64,000 bases of DNA from contig MFFN01000007.1 in NCBI GenBank assembly GCA_001777915.1, positions 4,807 to 68,806 of the forward strand, given 5' to 3'. Positions 52,077 through 62,092 of the stretch are shown here, piece by piece; position 1 is the stretch's first letter; each line of letters starts with the position of its first letter. A model generated the notes under the pieces. It saw only the letters and a list, made by a program, of their open reading frames with translations. It did not search any database and was not told the DNA's origin. Origin of the DNA: Candidatus Edwardsbacteria bacterium RifOxyA12_full_54_48. GTDB lineage: Bacteria > Edwardsbacteria > AC1 > EtOH8. The position numbers were made by a program, and so were the translations under genes.

Positions 52077-52688
52077 ATGAGAAATACAATAATATTCGTA
52101 ATCATCGCAACAATATTTTATTCGTGCGATAAAATAGAAGAAAATAATAATACAAAAGTGGATATTAAAAGGAATACGCAAACTATACAAGATTCAACAA
52201 TATATTGTGCTTTAAAATACAATCTTGAAATTTTTACAATGGCACACAGTACATCAAATAATATTGATTCTATTATAAAGTATTATGAATTAAATGAAAA
52301 TAATAAAATTGAAAGCAAAGCAAAGTCATTTCCGGAAACGCAAGAAGATGAACATCTTTTAAATACATTCATTGGTATAATTATGAAAGGGAAATTAAAT
52401 GTTACATATATAATAAAAATGACGCTGATTAATAAAAACAATGCTGAACTAGGGGAGGTGTTTATTGATGTTCTTGCAAAACATTGGCAAAACCCAGAGA
52501 AAGATTTCATTAAGGCCGTTATCAGCTTGCCAGATTCAGAGTGTGCAAGAATTATTTATAGCACAATTCCGGAAGAGCCAAAAGAAGTAAAAGAAATTAT
52601 AAAAAAGGTAGATAAATTATCGGAAATAAAAAATCTAAAAGGCTATGATTTATTAAAGAAAATATTAATTGAATTAGCTAATAGATAA
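52077..52688 (+). CDS. hypothetical lipoprotein (AT-rich orphan)
   Basis: Lipobox IFYSCDK, Asn/Lys/Ile-rich, no recognisable family. Confidence 0.5.
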   Translation: MRNTIIFVIIATIFYSCDKIEENNNTKVDIKRNTQTIQDSTIYCALKYNLEIFTMAHSTSNNIDSIIKYYELNENNKIESKAKSFPETQEDEHLLNTFIGIIMKGKLNVTYIIKMTLINKNNAELGEVFIDVLAKHWQNPEKDFIKAVISLPDSECARIIYSTIPEEPKEVKEIIKKVDKLSEIKNLKGYDLLKKILIELANR

Positions 52689-52800
52689 TATATTACCCCG
52701 GCGACGGCTGATCCGCAGCATCCTTGGCCACGGCCTGCAATTCCTTCCTGCATTTTATATTCACTTTGCTCATCAACGCCAATCAGCACTTTATGTGGGT

Positions 52801-52884
52801 GTCGCATTAGCTCTGCTGCTGAATAAAGAAGGCCGTTAGGAATTTGGCATTGTCTGAGCAAAGCGAGTTTGTCAAATTTAGGCC
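52801..52884 (+). repeat. repeat module A, copy 1
   Basis: An 84-nt unit GTCGCATTAGCTCTGCTGCTGAATAAAGAAGGC..TTAGGAATTTGGCATTGT.TGAGC.AAGCGAGTTTGTCAAATTTAGGCC. It recurs at 53468-53551 with about 5 differences. Confidence 0.8.
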
Positions 52885-52973
52885 TTCGGTCTTAAGGCTT
52901 CCGGGCAGAGGTATAGCGACAGGTTCTCTTTGCCACTTTCTCTTCAAAGAGAAAGTGGGGAACCATGGACCCT

Positions 52974-53175
52974 CTTACTTTTCTGCAGGCCAGAAAAGTA
53001 ACAAAAGAACCTTGTCCGCCCGGCAATTTCCGGCAGGAATGATACTCACGGACTAAATTCCTTGACCGGGGCGGGGAGATAAGCTCTGCAATGAATTTTT
53101 CACGCCCGTTTTGCTGGGGCAAAATTGCCGAAGGCGGGGAACCGAGTACCTAGGTCGCATCAGCTCTGCTGCTGA
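52974..53175 (+). repeat. repeat module D, copy 1 (~202 nt)
   Basis: Starts with the hairpin TTACTTTTCTG..CAGAAAAGTAA and ends ...GGTCGCATCAGCTCTGCTGCTGA. It aligns along its length with 53281-53489. Confidence 0.75.
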
Positions 53176-53236
53176 CGAGCTTTTGACCTCATCCTTCCCT
53201 CTCCTAATGCTTTATGAGAGGGGTAGGGGAGAGGTG
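53176..53236 (+). repeat. repeat module C, copy 1
   Basis: CGAGCTTTTGACCTCATCCTTCCCTCTCCTAATGCTTTATGAGAGGGGTAGGGGAGAGGTG (CCCTCTCC/GAGAGGGG hairpin). The second copy is at 53586-53646. Confidence 0.75.
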
Positions 53237-53280
53237 CGGGACAAAAAAGAAAAAGAACAGCATAATTCCCCAAAACGTGC

Positions 53281-53489
53281 CTTACTTTCTCTTGTGACCA
53301 AGAGAAAGTAACAAAGAGAAGTCTTGCCCGCCCGACAATTTCCGGCAGGAATGATATCCCCGGGCTAAATTCCTTGACCAGGGCTGGGTGCTATGCTCTG
53401 CAATGAATTTTCACGCCCGCTCCCGCCATAGCAAAATTGCCGAAGGCGGGGGAACGGGTAATGTCCGGTCGCATTAGCTCTGCTGCTGA
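53281..53489 (+). repeat. repeat module D, copy 2 (~209 nt)
   Basis: See copy 1. Here module A (53468-53551) is fused to or inserted at its 3' end before module C. Confidence 0.75.
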
Positions 53490-53551
53490 ATAAAGAAGGC
53501 ACTTAGGAATTTGGCATTGTTTGAGCGAAGCGAGTTTGTCAAATTTAGGCC
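53468..53551 (+). repeat. repeat module A, copy 2
   Basis: See copy 1. Confidence 0.8.
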
Positions 53552-53585
53552 GACGTCATAGGACTGCCAAGCAGAGGTTTAGCGA

Positions 53586-53646
53586 CGAGCTGTTGACCTC
53601 ACCCTTCCCTCTCCTAATGCTTTAGGAGAGGGGCAGGGGAGAGGTG
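53586..53646 (+). repeat. repeat module C, copy 2
   Basis: CGAGCTGTTGACCTCACCCTTCCCTCTCCTAATGCTTTAGGAGAGGGGCAGGGGAGAGGTG. Confidence 0.75.
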
Positions 53647-53688
53647 TTATAAGAGAAAGCGGAGGCTGGTTTTGAAAGAAAATAACAA

Positions 53689-53712
53689 AGGGACGATCAA
53701 ATGATCGTCCCT
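53689..53712 (-). terminator. terminator hairpin downstream of tRNA-Met
   Basis: AGGGACGATC-AAAT-GATCGTCCCT. On the minus strand it is followed by a T-rich run (TTGTTATTTTCTTTC). Confidence 0.65.
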
Positions 53713-53766
53713 TAAATATTCCTGGCGCCCGCTCAAGGCGGACTACTGCCCAGCGAGAAGTCAAAC

Positions 53767-53842
<76 letters not shown>

Positions 53843-53919: not shown

Positions 53920-53948
53920 TTGACATGCCGCGCCGGGGTTGTTATAAT
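53920..53948 (+). promoter_or_regulatory. consensus sigma-70 promoter (TTGACA-17 nt-TATAAT)
   Basis: TTGACA at 53920-25, 17-nt spacer, TATAAT at 53943-48, 37 nt before ATG 53985. Confidence 0.65.
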
Positions 53949-53984: not shown

Positions 53985-55073
53985 ATGAAAAAGAACATTT
54001 TAATTTCGGCTTTCCTTGCCGGGCTTGTCTCCCTGGCCCTGGCCGGCTCATTCGGGAAACAGCCCAAACCAGCCATCCAGAAAGGCCCCTACCTGTCCTG
54101 GGACGACGATCTCCGGACCACCATGACCGTCAGCTGGGAGACCAATACTCCTGTTCCCGGGAAACTGGCCTACGGACCCCGGGGTAAAATGAACTACATC
54201 CTGCGGGACGACCAAGCCGGGACCCTGCACCACTTGAGGATAAAAGATCTCAAGCCCGACACCCGCTACTATTACCAGTTGCTGAACCTGTCGGCCCCGG
54301 TCTGCAGTTTTAAGACCGCACCCCGGGAGATGCGGGATTTCAAATTCGTCATCTACGGCGACACCCGGACCTTTCCGGAGCAGCACAAAAAGGTGATCGC
54401 GGCCATAACCCAATACAACCCGGAGTTCCTGATCCACACCGGGGATTACATCCAGGACGGGCGGGTATGGGGCATGTGGCAGGAGTTCTTCGACGCCAGC
54501 CGGCCGTTCTCCTCCTTTATCCCTCTGATGACGGTGATCGGCAACCACGAACGGACCTGCGACAACTATGTGAAGCTGTTCGCCCTGCCCGGCAATGAAA
54601 GGTGGTATGCCTTCGATTATCTGAATGTTCACTTCATCATATTGAACAACGAAGAAAACTACCAGAAAGATTCCCAGCAATACCGGTGGTTCGAGGCCGA
54701 GATAAAACGATCCCGGCCGCTCTATAAATGGCTGTTCGTCCTCCAGCACCGCCAGACCTACTCCTCTGGCAAGCGGGGCAGCGACCAGGATATCCTGGAG
54801 AACCTGGAGCCGCTGTTCAGGAAATACCGGCCGGATGTGGTGTTCTGCGGGCACGAGCATTTTTACGAAAGGCAGCGGCGGGGCGGCGTCAACTATATCA
54901 TCACCGGCGGGGGCGGGGCCCCGCTGTACGACGTCAATCCAGGGGATTCCACCTTCCATGCCGAATCCAGCCTGCACTACTGCCAGGTCGAGGTCAGCGA
55001 CAGCGCCGCCAAGGTGCGGATGGTCCGGGTGGACGGCAGTTCGCCGGACAGTTTGGTGCTGAAGGCCAGATAG
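53985..55073 (+). CDS. metallophosphoesterase (purple-acid-phosphatase-like), secreted
   Basis: Signal peptide and a PAP-type N-terminal beta domain (MTVSWETN). Motifs GDTR, GDYIQDG, GNHE and GHEHFYER. Confidence 0.8.
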   Translation: MKKNILISAFLAGLVSLALAGSFGKQPKPAIQKGPYLSWDDDLRTTMTVSWETNTPVPGKLAYGPRGKMNYILRDDQAGTLHHLRIKDLKPDTRYYYQLLNLSAPVCSFKTAPREMRDFKFVIYGDTRTFPEQHKKVIAAITQYNPEFLIHTGDYIQDGRVWGMWQEFFDASRPFSSFIPLMTVIGNHERTCDNYVKLFALPGNERWYAFDYLNVHFIILNNEENYQKDSQQYRWFEAEIKRSRPLYKWLFVLQHRQTYSSGKRGSDQDILENLEPLFRKYRPDVVFCGHEHFYERQRRGGVNYIITGGGGAPLYDVNPGDSTFHAESSLHYCQVEVSDSAAKVRMVRVDGSSPDSLVLKAR

Positions 55074-55243
55074 TGAAACAGGGTATTGCAAATGACTCAA
55101 GAAAAACCTGATTCCCAGGTAAATAGAATCGGACTGATAGCTGAATTTTGCTCAAATGCCAGCCGCGGTCAAGTATTTGTCTATTGATAGGGGCTTGTTA
55201 ATGTCGAAAAATATCGCTGTTCAAATCTGAAACGGAGAATTTG

Positions 55244-55819
55244 ATGAGAACATTTATTTCAATTATACTCTTATCGGCAGGGCTGCTTATCACGGCCACC
55301 TCTGCCGCCGGGGTGCTTAACTTCAAGCTAAAACCGCTGGAGGGGAAAAAGAAGGTCGAGCTGGCCAGGGTGCTGGAAACCGGCCCGGCCCTGATAGCCT
55401 TCTGGGCCACCTGGTGTCACCCCTGCCAGGAGGAGCTGATCCACATCCAAAAGCTTTACCAGATGTACGCCGACAGCGGGATGTCATTCTACGCCGTCTC
55501 CATCGACGACGCCAAGACCGCCGGCAGGGTCAAGGCGGTGGCCAAAGGGAAGCGGTTCACCCTGCCGATACTGCTGGACCCCGAGCAGGAGGCGATGAGG
55601 TCCTTCAGCCTGATCAACGTTCCCGGGGTCTATATCCTGGGCCGGGACGGGAAGCTGCTTTATCAGCATACCGGCTATAAGCCGGGAGACGAGGCGGCCT
55701 TGGAGGAGAACGTCAGGACGATCCTCAAACTCGCTCCGGGACCGACCGCTCCGGCCGCCGGTGATTCGACAGCCTGCGGGGTGGATTCTTCCTGCTGCCC
55801 GGTCAAGGAGGAAAAATGA
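55244..55819 (+). CDS. TlpA-family thiol-disulfide oxidoreductase (periplasmic redoxin)
   Basis: Signal peptide and the FWATWCHPCQEE CxxC motif. Confidence 0.8.
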   Translation: MRTFISIILLSAGLLITATSAAGVLNFKLKPLEGKKKVELARVLETGPALIAFWATWCHPCQEELIHIQKLYQMYADSGMSFYAVSIDDAKTAGRVKAVAKGKRFTLPILLDPEQEAMRSFSLINVPGVYILGRDGKLLYQHTGYKPGDEAALEENVRTILKLAPGPTAPAAGDSTACGVDSSCCPVKEEK

Positions 55820-57888
55820 GATTTAAAAAGGCCCTGGCGACGGTGGTGCTGCCCATCTGCTTGGCGTTGTCCCTGACCAGTTGCGGCAAGAAACTTCCCA
55901 CCGCGGTGATTTCAGACCAGGGGTATCCCCGCACAGTGCTGGTGGAGCTATTCACCTCCGAATTCTGCACCAACTGCCCGACGGCCGATCGGGCCGCCGA
56001 ACGCCTGGCCGCCGAGATGGGTGATTCCCTATGTCTGGTCGAAATGCATCCCAATAATTTCCTGTCGCTGGGTGACAGCCTGGGGACTGCGGCGGCCGAC
56101 ACCCTGGCCGGTGACTACCAATCCGGCCTATCGGTGACAGGACTTCCCTTCTTCTCCTGCGACGGGCTGGAGAATATGCTGGGAACCTCGGTCGACGACG
56201 AGGCCACCTATCAAAGCTACCGCCAGCTGGCGGATATCCGCAAGATCATCAAAAGCCCATTGAAACTGAACCTCGCCGCCCAGCTGGACCAGGATGCCAT
56301 AATCTACTCCGCCCAGATAACCGCCGGCGGTTCTGTGCCGCAAAACGGCGATCTGGGGCTGGTCCTGCTGGTGGTGGAGGATTCGGTCAGCGCCTACGGC
56401 AAGGTGTTCCGTTATGTGGCGCGTTCGCTGGCCCCCAATACTGAAGGCGACCGGCTAGATATTCTGCCGGCATCGACAGTTTCCCGAGCGGGCAGCATCA
56501 TAAAGAATTCCGGGTGGCTGCCCTGGCGGCTGTCCCTTATTGCTTACGTACGCAACAATGACACCAGGGAGATCGTCCAGGCGGCCAGGGTCCGCATCTA
56601 TGCCGCCACCACCGCCCCGGCAGCGCCCGCCTTGAATCTGCCGGTTGATGATGCGGTAAATCTGGCCCTGAGCCCGACCCTGAGCTGGCTGGCCAGCAGC
56701 GGCGCGGCCAGCTACACCCTGCAGTACGACACCGACAGCCTGTTCGGCGGGGCGGTATCCCAGAGCGGACTGACCGGGACCAGCCTGCAGATAAAAGGCC
56801 TCGGTAACGCCACCACCTATTACTGGCGGGTAAACGCCAGCAACAATGCCGGAGTATCCGGGTGGTCGGCGATCCGTTGCTTTACCACCACCGCCACTGC
56901 TTTGCCGGTTAAGCCGGTTCTGAATGCGCCGGCGAACGGCGACACCGGCGTCAGCAAAAGTCCCACTTTGATCTGGACTGCCAGCAGCGGGGCTTCAAAC
57001 TACGGACTGCAGGTGGCTACCAACAATTCTTTCCATCCCGCCAGCATGATCTATTCCCAATCAGGACTGACCGGCACCGGCCAGTCGATCCTGGGGCTTG
57101 ATCCCGGGATCGACTATTACTGGCGGGTCAATGCCTCCAATATCGCCGGGACATCAGCCTGGTCGGAGACCTGGTCCTTCACCACCACTACCAATCCGGC
57201 CCCCGAACCTCCGGTCTTGGTCTGGCCGGCCAACGGCGAGCTGAACTCCGGCACCAGTCCGGCGCTAAGCTGGAGTTCCAGCTACGGGGCCTACAGCTAT
57301 GCCCTGCAGGTCTCGCCCAGCAGCGACTTTCGGAGCCTGGTATACTATCAAAGCGGATTGCCCGATACCAGCCGCTCCGTTGCCGGCCTTGACTCCCTGA
57401 CCACCTATCACTGGAGAGCCAACGCCTCCAACGTTTACGGAGCCTCCGGCTGGTCCGATGCCTGGACCTTCACCGATGCCAGGGGGTACGGCTTCTCCCG
57501 GCTGATCTCGCCGGACTCGGCCACCAGGCTGCCGGACACCATCATCAGCTACAGCCTGTCCGACCCGGAAACCCCGGAGCTGGGGTTCCATATCTATCTT
57601 GCCAATCTCTCTTCCAAGATGAACATCTATGCCCAGGCCCCCACTTCGCTGAACTCCGATCCCCTTTTGTTCTGGGGATTCCTATGCACCGAAACCGGCT
57701 GCCAGGGGCCCAACGGGATCGCCACTGCAGTATTCAATGCCGGGACCACCCAGCACTGGACGGTGCATTTTAACTTCAACACCTTGCCGCCTCCGGAAGG
57801 ACTGCATTCCTTGATATTAAAGTTATGGGCCGCCGACAATCCGTCGCATATCATGACCCGTCGGCTGTATCTGGAGGTGCTGCCGTGA
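55816..57888 (+). CDS. lipoprotein: thioredoxin-fold (DUF1223/Omp28-like) N-domain + three Fn3-like repeats + C-terminal domain
   Basis: Lipobox LSLTSCGK. VLVELFTSEFCTNCPTADRA resembles the ELFTS.GCSSCPPAD motif I remember for DUF1223. There are three ~97-aa repeats (SPTLSW..SGA.SY.LQ...YYWRVNASN..G.S.WS) at about 56608-57480. Confidence 0.6.
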   Translation: MRFKKALATVVLPICLALSLTSCGKKLPTAVISDQGYPRTVLVELFTSEFCTNCPTADRAAERLAAEMGDSLCLVEMHPNNFLSLGDSLGTAAADTLAGDYQSGLSVTGLPFFSCDGLENMLGTSVDDEATYQSYRQLADIRKIIKSPLKLNLAAQLDQDAIIYSAQITAGGSVPQNGDLGLVLLVVEDSVSAYGKVFRYVARSLAPNTEGDRLDILPASTVSRAGSIIKNSGWLPWRLSLIAYVRNNDTREIVQAARVRIYAATTAPAAPALNLPVDDAVNLALSPTLSWLASSGAASYTLQYDTDSLFGGAVSQSGLTGTSLQIKGLGNATTYYWRVNASNNAGVSGWSAIRCFTTTATALPVKPVLNAPANGDTGVSKSPTLIWTASSGASNYGLQVATNNSFHPASMIYSQSGLTGTGQSILGLDPGIDYYWRVNASNIAGTSAWSETWSFTTTTNPAPEPPVLVWPANGELNSGTSPALSWSSSYGAYSYALQVSPSSDFRSLVYYQSGLPDTSRSVAGLDSLTTYHWRANASNVYGASGWSDAWTFTDARGYGFSRLISPDSATRLPDTIISYSLSDPETPELGFHIYLANLSSKMNIYAQAPTSLNSDPLLFWGFLCTETGCQGPNGIATAVFNAGTTQHWTVHFNFNTLPPPEGLHSLILKLWAADNPSHIMTRRLYLEVLP

Positions 57889-59399
57889 GATATTTTGTTT
57901 TAACTGTTTGTCTTATGGCCTTGGCCGGCGAAGCCGCGGCCTGGGACCTTTCCGGCGGCAACCAGGCGGCCATCTGGGTCTCCCAGGCCGATACCGACAG
58001 CCTCTACAATGTGCTGCATTACCGGGAAGGGTGCGACCTGCGGCTGTCCGGCGATCTCAAGGATCACATCAAGCTTGACGCCGGGCTGAAGTTTTTATAC
58101 GACCAGGAGCGCTGGGACGACCAGCCGGTGTTCTCCGGGATCTCCCGGCGGTATCTTCAGCTGAAGACCGAAAATCTATCGGCCAGGGCCGGGACCTATT
58201 ACGCCACTTTGGGGCGGGGCCTGGTGCTGAACTGCGTCAACCAGCAGGCGGCCAAGGTCGACCGGTATCTGGACGGCGGCCTGGCCTCGGCTTCCTGGGA
58301 AGACCTGGGCGATGCCCGGCTGCTGTTCGGCCGGATCATGGAAAACACCGTGGAGCTGGACACGGCCAAGACCTATTTCGGGACCGAGATAAAGCTGACC
58401 AGGTTATCTTCAGCAACAGTAGGATTGGCCTATCTGAGGTCAAATGCTGCCGGGCCGGCTTTGGACCCTTCCTTCGGCAAGCCGGCCGACGAGCAATACA
58501 GCGGAAGCCTGGGCGGAACGCTCGGCCCGGTGGACCTTTACGGGGAGTACGCCGGCCGGCGCACCTACGGGCGGCTGTCCCCTTCGGCCGGCTGGGTGGG
58601 GATAGAGGATGTCAACGGCCACGCCTTTTACGGCAGCCTGACGGCCGCCTATGCCGGGCTGGGAGCAATGATGGATTTTAAAAAATATCGGGACTTCGAC
58701 GCCGCCATAAATGCGCCGCCGCCCTGCAACCGGGAGGGCCGGCTATTGAACAACGGGCAGGACGAGTATGGCTTTCAAACCGACCTGACGGCCACCCCCT
58801 GGGCTTGGCTGGAATTGCACGGTAATGCATCCTGGGCAAGGACCAGGGACCAGAGGGAGGATATAATGTCAATTGAAGGCCTGTCGTATTCCGGCAGCCA
58901 AAAATGGCAGGATGTTTTTGTGGAGGGCCGGTGGGAGGTCCGGGAGAACCTTCTCCTCAATGCCGAGGGACGGCTGAGACGGGAGGACAACCTGCAGCCC
59001 GATATCATCAGAAAAAAATATATGGGGGCCTCGGCCGGGATGGTATGGAAATACCATGGCTTCCGTACCCTGTCGGTCAAAGCCGGAGGCAACCGCTACA
59101 GGAATATCTATGATATGAGAAGGCTTTATTATGACGAGGTCCTGGCCGAGCTGGGCTGGGTTCCTTTTGCCTGGCTGAATGTCTTTGCCAATGCCGATCT
59201 GGCCGACAAGCCCGTTGCCGAGTACGACGGCAAGAAAAGCTGGGGCGAGGCCGGATGCGCCATAGATTTCGACCAGGGCCGCCAGCAGCTGAAAGTATCG
59301 GCCGGCCGGACCAAGGGCGGATTGGTCTGCTCCGGCGGGTTCTGCCGGTGGGAGCCGGCCTTTAAGGGATTCAAGGCCGCTTGGGAATGGAGTTTCTGA
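57885..59399 (+). CDS. putative outer-membrane beta-barrel protein
   Basis: GTG 57885 overlaps the upstream TGA (GTGA). Signal peptide LMALAGEAAAW. The composition alternates beta-strand-like segments and the terminus is AAWEWSF (aromatic C-terminal residue). CSGGFCRWEPAF motif. Confidence 0.55.
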   Translation: MRYFVLTVCLMALAGEAAAWDLSGGNQAAIWVSQADTDSLYNVLHYREGCDLRLSGDLKDHIKLDAGLKFLYDQERWDDQPVFSGISRRYLQLKTENLSARAGTYYATLGRGLVLNCVNQQAAKVDRYLDGGLASASWEDLGDARLLFGRIMENTVELDTAKTYFGTEIKLTRLSSATVGLAYLRSNAAGPALDPSFGKPADEQYSGSLGGTLGPVDLYGEYAGRRTYGRLSPSAGWVGIEDVNGHAFYGSLTAAYAGLGAMMDFKKYRDFDAAINAPPPCNREGRLLNNGQDEYGFQTDLTATPWAWLELHGNASWARTRDQREDIMSIEGLSYSGSQKWQDVFVEGRWEVRENLLLNAEGRLRREDNLQPDIIRKKYMGASAGMVWKYHGFRTLSVKAGGNRYRNIYDMRRLYYDEVLAELGWVPFAWLNVFANADLADKPVAEYDGKKSWGEAGCAIDFDQGRQQLKVSAGRTKGGLVCSGGFCRWEPAFKGFKAAWEWSF

Positions 59400-59434
59400 G
59401 GGAAATTTAGCAGGTAAAATCGCGAAATAGTCAT

Positions 59435-59471
59435 AGCCAAAGGCCCGGTTTTAACCGGGCCTTTGGCTTTC
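59435..59471 (+). terminator. rho-independent terminator
   Basis: AGCCAAAGGCCCGG-TTTTAA-CCGGGCCTTTGGCT followed by TTT. Confidence 0.8.
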
Positions 59472-59505
59472 CCTTCGAACCATTTTTGCTAGGCTCCTTC
59501 TTTTC

Positions 59506-59534
59506 TTGACAACCCAAGGGCCCGCTGATATAAT
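59506..59534 (+). promoter_or_regulatory. consensus sigma-70 promoter (TTGACA-17 nt-TATAAT)
   Basis: TTGACA at 59506-11, 17-nt spacer, TATAAT at 59529-34, 43 nt before ATG 59577. Confidence 0.65.
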
Positions 59535-60515: not shown

Positions 60516-60664
60516 TTGCACACGGATGACACTGATCGTGGGATATTTCCACGGATATTTTACCCATGTTTCTTTGGGTTATGAATTATATACACCTGTT
60601 CCTGATGCTGAATCTTTTATGGCTGAGTGTTTGCAGCGCCCAGCCGGAAAAGGAGGGACAAGCT

Positions 60665-62092
60665 ATGAATATAAGAAGGTCCATCATTGCCGGAAGCTGG
60701 TATCCGGGAGAAGCCGATAAGCTATCGGCTCAGATAAATAAATATCTTGATGCGGCAAAGAAGGCCGAAAGCGATGGCGTGTTGACGGGCATCATCGTCC
60801 CCCATGCCGGGTACCTGTACTCCGGACCGACCGCGGCCTATGCCTACAAGAACATCAATCCTGAAAACATCTCCACCGTTATCATGGTGGGTCCCAGCCA
60901 CAGCGCCTATTTTGAGGGGACGGCGGTCTATGGCTTCGGTGCCTGGGAGACGCCGCTGGGTAAGACCGAGATCGACTCCAAGTTGGCCGAAGAGATAATT
61001 TCCCAGGACCAGAAATACATCAATGACAACCCCGGGGCCCATGCCAAAGAACATTCACTGGAGATACAGCTCCCGTTCCTGCAGTCCGTGATGCACTCTG
61101 GATTTAAGATAGTGCCGATAATGCTCTACGATCAGTCACTGGCCTCCTGCGATCGCCTGGCTCAGACCATAGCCGGGGCGGTCAAGGGACGGGACGATGT
61201 CCTGCTGCTGGCCTCCAGCGACCTGTCGCACTACCATTCCCAGGCCGAGGCGAAAAGGCTGGATAAATTGGTGATGGATGCCGTGGGTAAATTTGATCCC
61301 GAAAAATTAGCCGGTGACCTGGCCTTTGAAAAATGCGAGGCCTGCGGAGGCGGTCCGATGGTGACGGTGATGCTGGCCTGCCGCTATCTGGGGGCGGACA
61401 GGTCCGTGGTCTATGACTACCGGACCTCCGGCGATGTGACCGGGGACAAGGGCCAGGTGGTGGGATATCTGGCAGCGGGGCTCTATAATACAAAAAACAA
61501 AAAAGAAAAAATCAAAAAACAAATAATAGAAGACGATAAATTAACACTGGAGGAGAAAAGAGAACTTTTCCGGATAGCGCACCAGTCGATCGAGGCTGAG
61601 GTCAGAGGACTGCCCAAGCCGAAGTTCACACCGCTGACCCCCAGGCTGGCCGAACTACGGGGCGTCTTCGTCACCCTGAAGGAAAGCGGCAATCTGCGGG
61701 GCTGCATCGGATATATAGAGGGCATAAGGCCGCTGTACCAGGCGGTGGCGGAGATGGCGGTGGCGGCGGCCACCGGGGACCCCCGTTTCCCTCCGGTGAC
61801 AACAAGAGAATTACCGGAATTGGAGTATGAGATATCGGTATTGACCCCCAAGAGGCAGATAGATTCGCCGGAAGAGTTCATTGTGGGCAGGCATGGTATA
61901 ATAGTCCAGCGGGGCGGGCGCTCCGGGGTGTTTTTGCCGCAGGTGGCGGCCGAGGAAGGATGGACCCGCGAGGAAACGTTGTCGTATTTATGCCTGCACA
62001 AAGCCGGCCTGCCGGCCGGGGCCTGGAAGGATAAGGAGACGAAATTGTTCGTGTTCGAGGCCGAGGTGATAGAAGGAAAGGATATAAAATGA
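60665..62092 (+). CDS. fusion of AmmeMemoRadiSam system protein B (Memo-like) and protein A (AMMECR1 domain)
   Basis: ATG 60665 follows an AGGAGG RBS (60651-56). Memo motifs are AGSWYPG, IVPHAGYLYSG and GPSH. The AMMECR1 motif is GVFVTLKESGNLRGCIGY. Confidence 0.8.
   Translation: MNIRRSIIAGSWYPGEADKLSAQINKYLDAAKKAESDGVLTGIIVPHAGYLYSGPTAAYAYKNINPENISTVIMVGPSHSAYFEGTAVYGFGAWETPLGKTEIDSKLAEEIISQDQKYINDNPGAHAKEHSLEIQLPFLQSVMHSGFKIVPIMLYDQSLASCDRLAQTIAGAVKGRDDVLLLASSDLSHYHSQAEAKRLDKLVMDAVGKFDPEKLAGDLAFEKCEACGGGPMVTVMLACRYLGADRSVVYDYRTSGDVTGDKGQVVGYLAAGLYNTKNKKEKIKKQIIEDDKLTLEEKRELFRIAHQSIEAEVRGLPKPKFTPLTPRLAELRGVFVTLKESGNLRGCIGYIEGIRPLYQAVAEMAVAAATGDPRFPPVTTRELPELEYEISVLTPKRQIDSPEEFIVGRHGIIVQRGGRSGVFLPQVAAEEGWTREETLSYLCLHKAGLPAGAWKDKETKLFVFEAEVIEGKDIK

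Follow-up and report, generated by a model that had tools for sequence, protein, structure and literature searches.

An Edwardsbacteria operon joining a TlpA-like redoxin, an Omp28-like lipoprotein and a DUF6029 barrel points to thiol redox chemistry at the outer membrane

Thiol-redox pathways of the bacterial envelope are held to end in the periplasm: the known reductive routes, which run from DsbD or CcdA to TlpA, ResA, CcmG and DsbC/G, serve periplasmic or inner-membrane clients (cytochrome c, ScoI, CoxB) and have no obligatory barrel partner or fusion. Yet bacteria of the Fibrobacterota–Chlorobiota–Bacteroidota (FCB) group export thioredoxin-fold proteins to the cell surface, among them HBP35 and other proteins with CxxC or UxxC sites, and we know of no account of how these proteins stay reduced. 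HBP35 of Porphyromonas gingivalis is a type IX-secreted surface protein that has CxxC-dependent thioredoxin activity and binds haemin (PMC2907840), and a 2026 preprint goes no further than the conjecture that Muribaculaceae use surface proteins with thioredoxin domains as a defence against oxidants. Here we describe an operon in a metagenome-assembled genome of Candidatus Edwardsbacteria, within a 64-kb stretch of DNA (the window, whose coordinates are used throughout), that encodes a TlpA-like redoxin, a thioredoxin-fold lipoprotein and a predicted outer-membrane barrel of the DUF6029 family. The operon points to an envelope pathway, with a barrel as core component, by which thiol (or selenol) redox chemistry would reach the outer membrane or the surface of the cell. 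Across the breadth of a bacterial superphylum the genes for reductase and barrel are neighbors, in some cases merged into one, and the three genes very probably form one functionally linked redox module. The labels 'TlpA family', 'Omp28-related selenoprotein' and 'DUF6029' already exist in annotation and all of the domains belong to known superfamilies. Full-text literature searches found no description of the TlpA/Omp28-like/DUF6029 association, of the fusions or of their function, and the module is to that extent uncharacterised, as an original prediction made from the letters of this stretch had supposed. The three genes are:

55244-55819, plus strand, open reading frame of 191 aa, the redoxin
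55816-57888, plus strand, open reading frame of 690 aa, the lipoprotein
57885-59399, plus strand, open reading frame of 504 aa with a GTG start, the barrel

To catalogue the wider distribution of this arrangement, one genome per GTDB species was scanned via a single C-terminal peptide pattern, and the best 80 DUF6029 loci were kept and searched, as stop-to-stop open reading frames, with iterated hidden Markov models (HMMs) that took the proteins of the window as their starting point. These loci, cited below by numbers prefixed with L, come from Edwardsbacteria/UBP2, WOR-3, Stahlbacteria, Latescibacterota, Krumholzibacteriia, Eisenbacteria, Fibrobacteraceae, Ignavibacteria and Gemmatimonadota. 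In 70 of the 72 loci that have enough upstream DNA, the gene immediately 5' of the barrel gene is TlpA-like, at a median of 88 nt between domain envelopes. In 15 loci the two are a single in-frame reading frame, built as a signal peptide, TlpA, an Ala/Pro/Gly linker of 20-25 aa and the barrel; Pfam recovered both domains in one reading frame in each of the three fusions so examined, and three more fusions were found among 150 representatives of DUF6029. Chance adjacency was rejected on the count of these loci and fusions. Near-universal adjacency and Rosetta-stone fusions thus argue for a joint function of TlpA and barrel after assembly of the barrel, and the domain order of the fused sequences would place TlpA at its periplasmic N-terminus. 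Of the 80 loci, 65 also have Omp28-like thioredoxin-fold genes, often as 1-4 paralogs. When all neighboring reading frames were clustered, TlpA, Omp28-like and Fer4_5 families dominated, and any further family was confined to 34 loci or fewer. The neighborhood that the original prediction placed in Bacteroidota is therefore strongly conserved, but the loci sampled span the FCB group and are not from classical Bacteroidota, and the layout it described, with the order TlpA-lipoprotein-barrel and a fibronectin type III (Fn3) stalk, holds in the Edwardsbacteria/UBP2 clade only.

The redox character of the module is most evident in the homologs of its middle protein. Fifty Omp28-like reading frames, about half of the Omp28-like genes, carry an in-frame TGA at the codon aligned with Cys51 of the lipoprotein, which is the first Cys of its CxxC site, and in these the frame stays open further upstream, through the conserved β1 strand to a signal peptide or lipobox (e.g. 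MKK...LFVFCSDAP...RTVLAELFTEDGUGFCALAERAL). A 7-bp hairpin 11 nt past the UGA is conserved, with compensatory changes at 5 of the 7 pairs, and is consistent with a bacterial selenocysteine insertion sequence (SECIS), in a region that also codes for protein. Taken together, the UGA/Cys alignment, the open frame and the SECIS-like hairpin indicate that these homologs are probably selenoproteins. Exchange of selenocysteine (Sec) and Cys at the N-terminal position of a CxxC is a classic mark of a catalytic, nucleophilic redox site, so the in-frame UGA at this position marks the site as redox-active. The lipoprotein itself uses Cys (CTNC), and no Sec was found in the TlpA homologs or in the barrel on inspection of the homologs and the barrel alignment. 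The TlpA motif CKMC occurs only with Sec-form partners (29/29) and CxPC-type TlpA with Cys forms, a pairing that is confounded by phylogeny. Moreover, several Omp28-like paralogs pass the Omp28 cutoff and carry type A sorting domains of the type IX system (TIGR04183 above cutoff; FlgD_ig and Por_Secre_tail), which suggests that they are exported to the cell surface.

Genes of redox type also adjoin the barrel in other lineages. In 34 loci (L014-L055, L081, L083, L084) of the WOR-3/Stahlbacteria/Latescibacterota clade, the next gene after the barrel, on the same strand, encodes a NapH/CcoG-like membrane polyferredoxin of ~270 aa with a Fer4_5 domain and CxxCP motifs, and in 16 of these 34 it is followed by a GltD-like flavoprotein (Pyr_redox_2/Fer4_20). 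A DsbD-like gene (DsbD_TM plus thioredoxin) lies directly after DUF6029 at L086:9444-11300 and L087:2794-4686; apart from these two, a search for DsbD homologs was negative, the 80 GTDB loci included. The L086/L087 lineage has an AhpC-TSA protein with immunoglobulin-like (Ig) domains in place of the Omp28-like partner, and such an Ig-AhpC-TSA protein is also present in L088, where a third redoxin follows the barrel. It is from the Sec/Cys pairing, the gene fusions and these neighbors that we infer membership of a redox module.

The first gene encodes, by its sequence, an exported TlpA/ResA-like thiol-disulfide oxidoreductase that is the ortholog of no characterised enzyme. Its matches to AhpC-TSA (71 bits, cutoff 26) and Redoxin (61.8, cutoff 26.6) in Pfam are clear, whereas those to the NCBIfam models of TlpA (NF047696; 31.3 vs 230), ResA (NF002854; 74 vs 170) and DsbE (TIGR00385; 43.9 vs 123) fall below cutoff. 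The N-terminus is a hydrophobic export segment, either a signal or an anchor helix, and the active site is read from the sequence as:

55415-55426, plus strand, WATWCHPC active site of the redoxin with Cys58 and Cys61

The WxxWCxxC motif is kept in all but one fragmentary match among the 75 TlpA homologs found beside DUF6029. The C-terminal tail of the redoxin is Cys-rich, with CGVDSSCCP (window positions 55760-55816 read CGVDSSCCPVKEEK), and Cys- and His-rich tails recur on many unfused TlpA homologs (L014, L015, L019, L020, L029, L041 and others), e.g. KDCKGDCKGKCHE in WOR-3. These tails look metal-binding. The fused forms of TlpA have the Ala/Pro/Gly linker in place of such a tail.

The second protein combines a lipoprotein signal, a thioredoxin fold, a stalk and a C-terminal domain:

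55816-55884, plus strand, signal peptide and lipobox LTSC with Cys23, read from the sequence
55927-56250, plus strand, thioredoxin-fold domain, aa ~38-145, from the AlphaFold2 (AF2) model, PDB sequence matches and the Sec homologs
55966-55977, plus strand, CTNC active site (aa 51-54), where helix 54-71 begins in the AF2 secondary structure
56251-56601, plus strand, β-sandwich after the thioredoxin fold, aa ~146-262, the region of the Omp28 Pfam model
56620-57486, plus strand, three tandem Fn3 repeats, aa 269-366, 367-462 and 463-557, by Pfam fn3
57487-57885, plus strand, C-terminal β-sandwich of ~133 aa with a conserved CTETGC, AF2 strands at aa 591-688 with a predicted local distance difference test score (pLDDT) of 60-80

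Cys23 of the lipobox (...LALSLTS-C23) is invariant in an alignment of 17 related sequences, and the sequence, which fits the consensus [LVI][ASTVI][GAS]C, identifies the protein as a lipoprotein. Its AF2 model (pLDDT 76.8 overall) has a canonical thioredoxin fold at aa ~41-143 and the sandwich after it at aa 149-260, and gives the thioredoxin domain the order β-α-β-α-β-β-α, with the CxxC at aa 51-54 within RTVLVELFTSEFCTNCPTADRA, and PDB sequence matches at this site are to the MJ0307 thioredoxin (1fo5) and a DUF1223 protein (2axo). The resemblance to DUF1223/Omp28-type proteins that was originally noted is borne out for Omp28 by profile comparison, not by curated thresholds. The protein scores below cutoff with Omp28 (PF11551; 21.7 bits vs 34.9, aa 100-261) and DUF1223 (PF06764; 23.7 vs 30.7, aa 42-78 around the CxxC), as it does with the Omp28-related selenoprotein (NF045500; 57.7 vs 200) and Omp28 lipoprotein (NF033782; 39.4 vs 150) models. 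An hhalign comparison of its N-terminal module with 11 Omp28-like paralogs, at least 5 of which pass the Omp28 Pfam cutoff, gave 99.7% probability (E = 1.2e-25, 209 columns); pairwise BLASTP against an Omp28-positive paralog aligned the CxxC region alone. In Foldseek, Fn3 arrays dominate the matches of the whole model (E about 1e-16), and the best solved structure outside these is HBP35 (5y1a; rank 48, target-normalised template modelling score 0.56, E = 1e-11). Profile and fold thus assign the N-terminal module to the Omp28/HBP35 type, a thioredoxin fold followed by a sandwich.

The three repeats, put at ~97 aa in the original prediction, are Fn3 domains of 95-98 aa with pairwise identities of 49-53% and scores more than 20 standard deviations above shuffled sequences (PF00041, 40.7 bits vs 25; pLDDT 80-90). 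A homology search with the full-length protein returned mostly Fn3-only matches, this Fn3 type being common in type IX cargo proteins as well, and ~18 true orthologs, all from Edwardsbacteria or TA06. A word-indexed search with the N-terminal module alone returned 4 proteins only; remote homologs were reached by iterated HMMs on the fetched loci. The C-terminal domain has no match in Pfam, and its profile matches only three copies of this contig and loci L004 and L005, which suggests that it is limited to the Edwardsbacteria/UBP2 clade. Pfam found neither Por_Secre_tail nor FlgD_ig, the type IX sorting domains, in the lipoprotein. Between its TlpA and barrel genes, locus L010 encodes a lipoprotein of 876 aa (3174-5801) that has an Omp28/DUF1223-like CxxC module at each end, one with CANC and the other with CVNC, separated by repeated domains.

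The third protein was originally read as an outer-membrane barrel with a signal peptide, and both HMM search and modelling bear this out. It matches DUF6029 (PF19494) with 69.8 bits against a cutoff of 27, and 33/33 of its homologs carry this domain too; clustered at 50% identity, the family amounts to 1,968 clusters. The signal peptide spans aa 1-19, and the protein ends in a C-terminal Phe (...AAWEWSF) shortly after CSGGFCRWEPAF (aa 482-493). The predicted model is not that of a soluble protein but an all-β barrel, short-looped and without a plug domain, that comprises about 24 strands (pLDDT 86.5; predicted template modelling score 0.79). Its best structural matches are the 24-stranded translocation domains of the FimD and PapC ushers (354-359 residues aligned, identity 8-10%), and a PDB sequence search with the barrel gave zero matches. 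One element of the last two strands stands out in both the alignments and the model:

59328-59345, plus strand, CSGGFC hairpin with Cys482 and Cys487 around a Gly-Gly turn

The strands of this hairpin are modelled at aa 479-483 and 486-490. Both Cys residues are invariant in two family alignments, and among 150 diverse representatives of DUF6029 the CxxxxC is present in 147 and a final Phe in 106. We describe the hallmark of DUF6029, from these sequences, as a C-terminal GGLxC-x-x-G-x-C...F hairpin with a terminal aromatic residue, and the Edwardsbacteria barrel carries it. The alignment also shows conserved loop motifs. The turn between the last two strands of a barrel of standard topology is the last extracellular loop, and the Cys482/Cys487 pair would by this topology lie there.

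The genes themselves are tightly packed. The stop codon of the redoxin gene overlaps the start of the lipoprotein gene as ATGA (55816-55819), and that of the lipoprotein gene overlaps the barrel's GTG start as GTGA (57885-57888), just as originally noted. These overlaps, once taken to mean co-translation, indicate instead translational coupling within one transcript. Shine-Dalgarno motifs precede all three starts (GGAG at 55234-55237, AAGGAGG at 55805-55811 and GGAGG at 57873-57877), and JGI and ENA gene calls place the starts identically. NCBI starts the barrel at an ATG at 57915, 30 nt downstream (494 aa), with the loss of most of the signal peptide; the N-termini of aligned orthologs favor the GTG at 57885. 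The control elements around the genes are:

55184-55212, plus strand, weak sigma-70-like promoter candidate for the redoxin gene, TTGATA-17-AAAAAT, 9/12 matches and a consensus match only
59436-59469, plus strand, strong G+C-rich 15-bp hairpin 37 nt past the barrel stop, a putative operon terminator
53920-53948, perfect sigma-70 consensus promoter (TTGACA-17-TATAAT, extended TG) before a metallophosphatase gene
59506-59534, perfect sigma-70 consensus promoter (TTGACA-17-TATAAT, extended TG) before the next gene after the barrel, a UbiA-family prenyltransferase gene

The hairpin, within a region (59395-59500) that folds with -46.3 kcal/mol (z = -5.5), is taken as the terminator of the operon. 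With the 4-nt overlaps, the Shine-Dalgarno motifs, this hairpin after the last stop and the promoter of the next gene, the three genes are a compact, single, translationally coupled operon, flanked on both sides by perfect promoters. The weak promoter candidate lies in the 170-nt gap upstream of the redoxin gene, which may also be transcribed by read-through from the metallophosphatase gene. The latter (53985-55073) was considered as a member of the module and rejected, having its own perfect consensus promoter and no place among the recurrent neighbor clusters; in related Edwardsbacteria/UBP2 loci it is Omp28-like paralogs that lie upstream of TlpA. The identical 690-aa lipoprotein in identical gene context is found in RifOxyA12_full_54_48-type contigs and in GCA_003520765.1.

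On balance we favor, with some reserve, a reductive relay organised on the barrel, in which electrons would pass from a cytoplasmic donor through an importer to TlpA, on to the Omp28-like CxxC/UxxC proteins and finally to a substrate. The redoxin would be the exported CxxC reductase of TlpA/ResA type, working at the periplasmic face of the barrel, to whose N-terminus it is covalently tethered in other phyla. The CxxC of the lipoprotein would be the catalytic site, equivalent to the UxxC of its Sec homologs. Reducing equivalents would originate in the cytoplasm and enter through an importer of CcdA/DsbD type encoded elsewhere in this genome, or in other clades through the adjacent DsbD or the NapH-like polyferredoxin with its GltD-like flavoprotein. 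From TlpA they would flow to one or more Omp28-like proteins, with the barrel as docking or translocation platform, and these proteins would reduce some oxidised substrate, either at the outer membrane or outside it. The sequences show the domain identities, the conserved adjacency and the fusions, the equivalence of Sec and Cys at the active site, the secretion signals of the paralogs and the neighbors of redox type; in the relay itself the direction of electron flow, the docking of TlpA on the barrel, the position of the lipoprotein on one or other face of the outer membrane and the substrate are all inferred.

Several observations weigh against the relay. Homolog searches found no CcdA or DsbD gene in the 64-kb window, and the Fer4_5 and GltD-like profiles match nothing in it. 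By topology the barrel's Cys pair is far from a periplasmic TlpA, so that a direct exchange of thiols between the two is not evident, and a merely structural disulfide is another possible role for the pair. The surface-export signal of Bacteroidota lipoproteins is acidic, whereas the residues that follow the lipid-modified Cys here (CGKKLPT) are not acidic, so that surface exposure of the lipoprotein is unproven from its sequence. At least one DUF6029 locus (L089) has no adjacent TlpA, and a few have no Omp28-like gene within 6 kb. Finally, retrieval by one pattern and selection of the best 80 make the loci a biased sample, and phylogeny confounds the co-occurrence statistics.

A bolder extension, which fits the architecture but is rather doubtful, is that TlpA, the DUF6029 barrel and the Omp28/HBP35-like Cys/Sec proteins form a thiol/selenol electron conduit across the outer membrane. 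The TlpA domain or the thioredoxin domain of the lipoprotein would hypothetically fill the plug-less lumen of ~24 strands, and the CxxGxC hairpin at the outer mouth would pass equivalents on to thioredoxin-fold (seleno)proteins, both those anchored at the surface and those secreted by the type IX system. If true, this would explain the recycling of extracellular thioredoxins such as HBP35.

The foremost rival, improbable in our view, is an uptake or processing system in which the barrel would import a thiol-reactive substrate (haem, a soft metal or oxidised sulfur or selenium species), Omp28/HBP35-like proteins would capture or reduce it at the surface, and periplasmic TlpA would complete the reduction or pass the substrate on. 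Among solved structures the N-terminal module is closest to HBP35, a haemin-binding protein required for growth when haemin is scarce; the Cys- and His-rich tails of the unfused TlpA homologs, the redoxin studied here included, look metal-binding; and the large barrel has its conserved loop motifs. CcoG is a cupric reductase, and the Fer4_5 neighbor is of NapH/CcoG type. Nevertheless, the neighborhood has no conserved TonB box, no plug and no recurring genes for binding proteins, a 24-strand pore without a plug would be predicted to leak heavily as a simple channel, and Sec at the nucleophilic position together with multiple secreted paralogs suits catalysis more than ligand capture.

Less likely still is a dedicated folding system, in which the barrel would be a client of TlpA and the Omp28-like protein rather than a partner, and these two would exist to form or isomerise its Cys pair or to hold that pair reduced; alternatively, they would do so for the Cys/Sec sites of cargo yet to be exported by the type IX system. 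The invariance of the CxxGxC pair and the tight coupling of the TlpA gene to the barrel gene would suit such a role, and there is precedent in LptD, an outer-membrane barrel whose assembly needs disulfide rearrangement. However, 15 lineages have TlpA permanently and covalently joined to the mature barrel, which speaks for a role once the barrel has been assembled, and a single structural disulfide hardly needs 1-4 thioredoxin-fold partners, selenocysteine and NAD(P)H-linked neighbors. We give very little credence to a polysaccharide-export porin of Wzi/PgaA type with unrelated redox neighbors, which the only paper found to mention DUF6029 suggests from an HHpred similarity to homologs of Wzi barrels encoded near OPX (outer-membrane polysaccharide export) genes (PMC9603273), as the larger neighbor clusters of the 80 loci, annotated with Pfam, are not polysaccharide-export genes and the TlpA fusions would be left unexplained.

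Other features of the window lie outside the operon. Positions 52,700-53,842 are an ORF-poor (ORF, open reading frame), low-GC intergenic region with 2-3 copies of direct repeats of ~310-350 nt at 88-95% identity (e.g. the paired segments 53011-53099/53323-53411, 52801-52884/53468-53551 and 53174-53236/53584-53646), adjoined by a minus-strand gene for tRNA-Met (CAT) at 53767-53842; no Rfam family other than this tRNA matches there. Low-GC islands (0.40-0.45 vs about 0.58 elsewhere) lie at 8-12, 32-34, 52-54 and 62-64 kb, and an ORF inside one of them (52077-52688) has no Pfam match. Positions 60566-62092 encode one 508-aa protein that joins AmmeMemoRadiSam protein B (Memo-like, aa 37-304) to protein A (AMMECR1-like, aa 333-501).

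A reductase genetically welded to a large barrel, and partnered with Cys or Sec thioredoxin-fold lipoproteins and secreted paralogs, is a concrete and testable candidate for the means by which surface thioredoxins are kept reduced. It would also provide the first functional context for DUF6029 and the 'Omp28-related selenoprotein' family, and add a probable extracytoplasmic selenoprotein system for uncultivated phyla such as WOR-3 and Stahlbacteria. The operon shares with the periplasmic reductive pathways an exported WCxxC thioredoxin fold of AhpC-TSA/Redoxin type and, in some DUF6029 loci, a DsbD-like gene directly after the barrel. The lipoprotein resembles the HBP35/Omp28 family (PF11551, NF045500) in its CxxC thioredoxin domain followed by an Ig-like sandwich and in the family's outer-membrane or surface association; unlike HBP35, it is a lipoprotein without a type IX sorting domain, and it has three Fn3 repeats and a clade-specific C-terminal domain. 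The barrel resembles the FimD and PapC ushers in its 24 strands but lacks their plug and N- and C-terminal domains, and no chaperone or pilin genes lie nearby. LptD-LptE likewise pairs a large barrel bearing conserved Cys with a lipoprotein, which there forms a plug, and its disulfides are functionally important; however, it transports lipopolysaccharide, and LptD has a periplasmic β-jellyroll. A conduit, should there be one, could be seen as the outer-membrane equivalent of DsbD and as a protein-thiol analog of the MtrCAB porin-cytochrome complex of Shewanella, which uses haem cofactors rather than thiols or selenols and bears no sequence relationship to the DUF6029 system.

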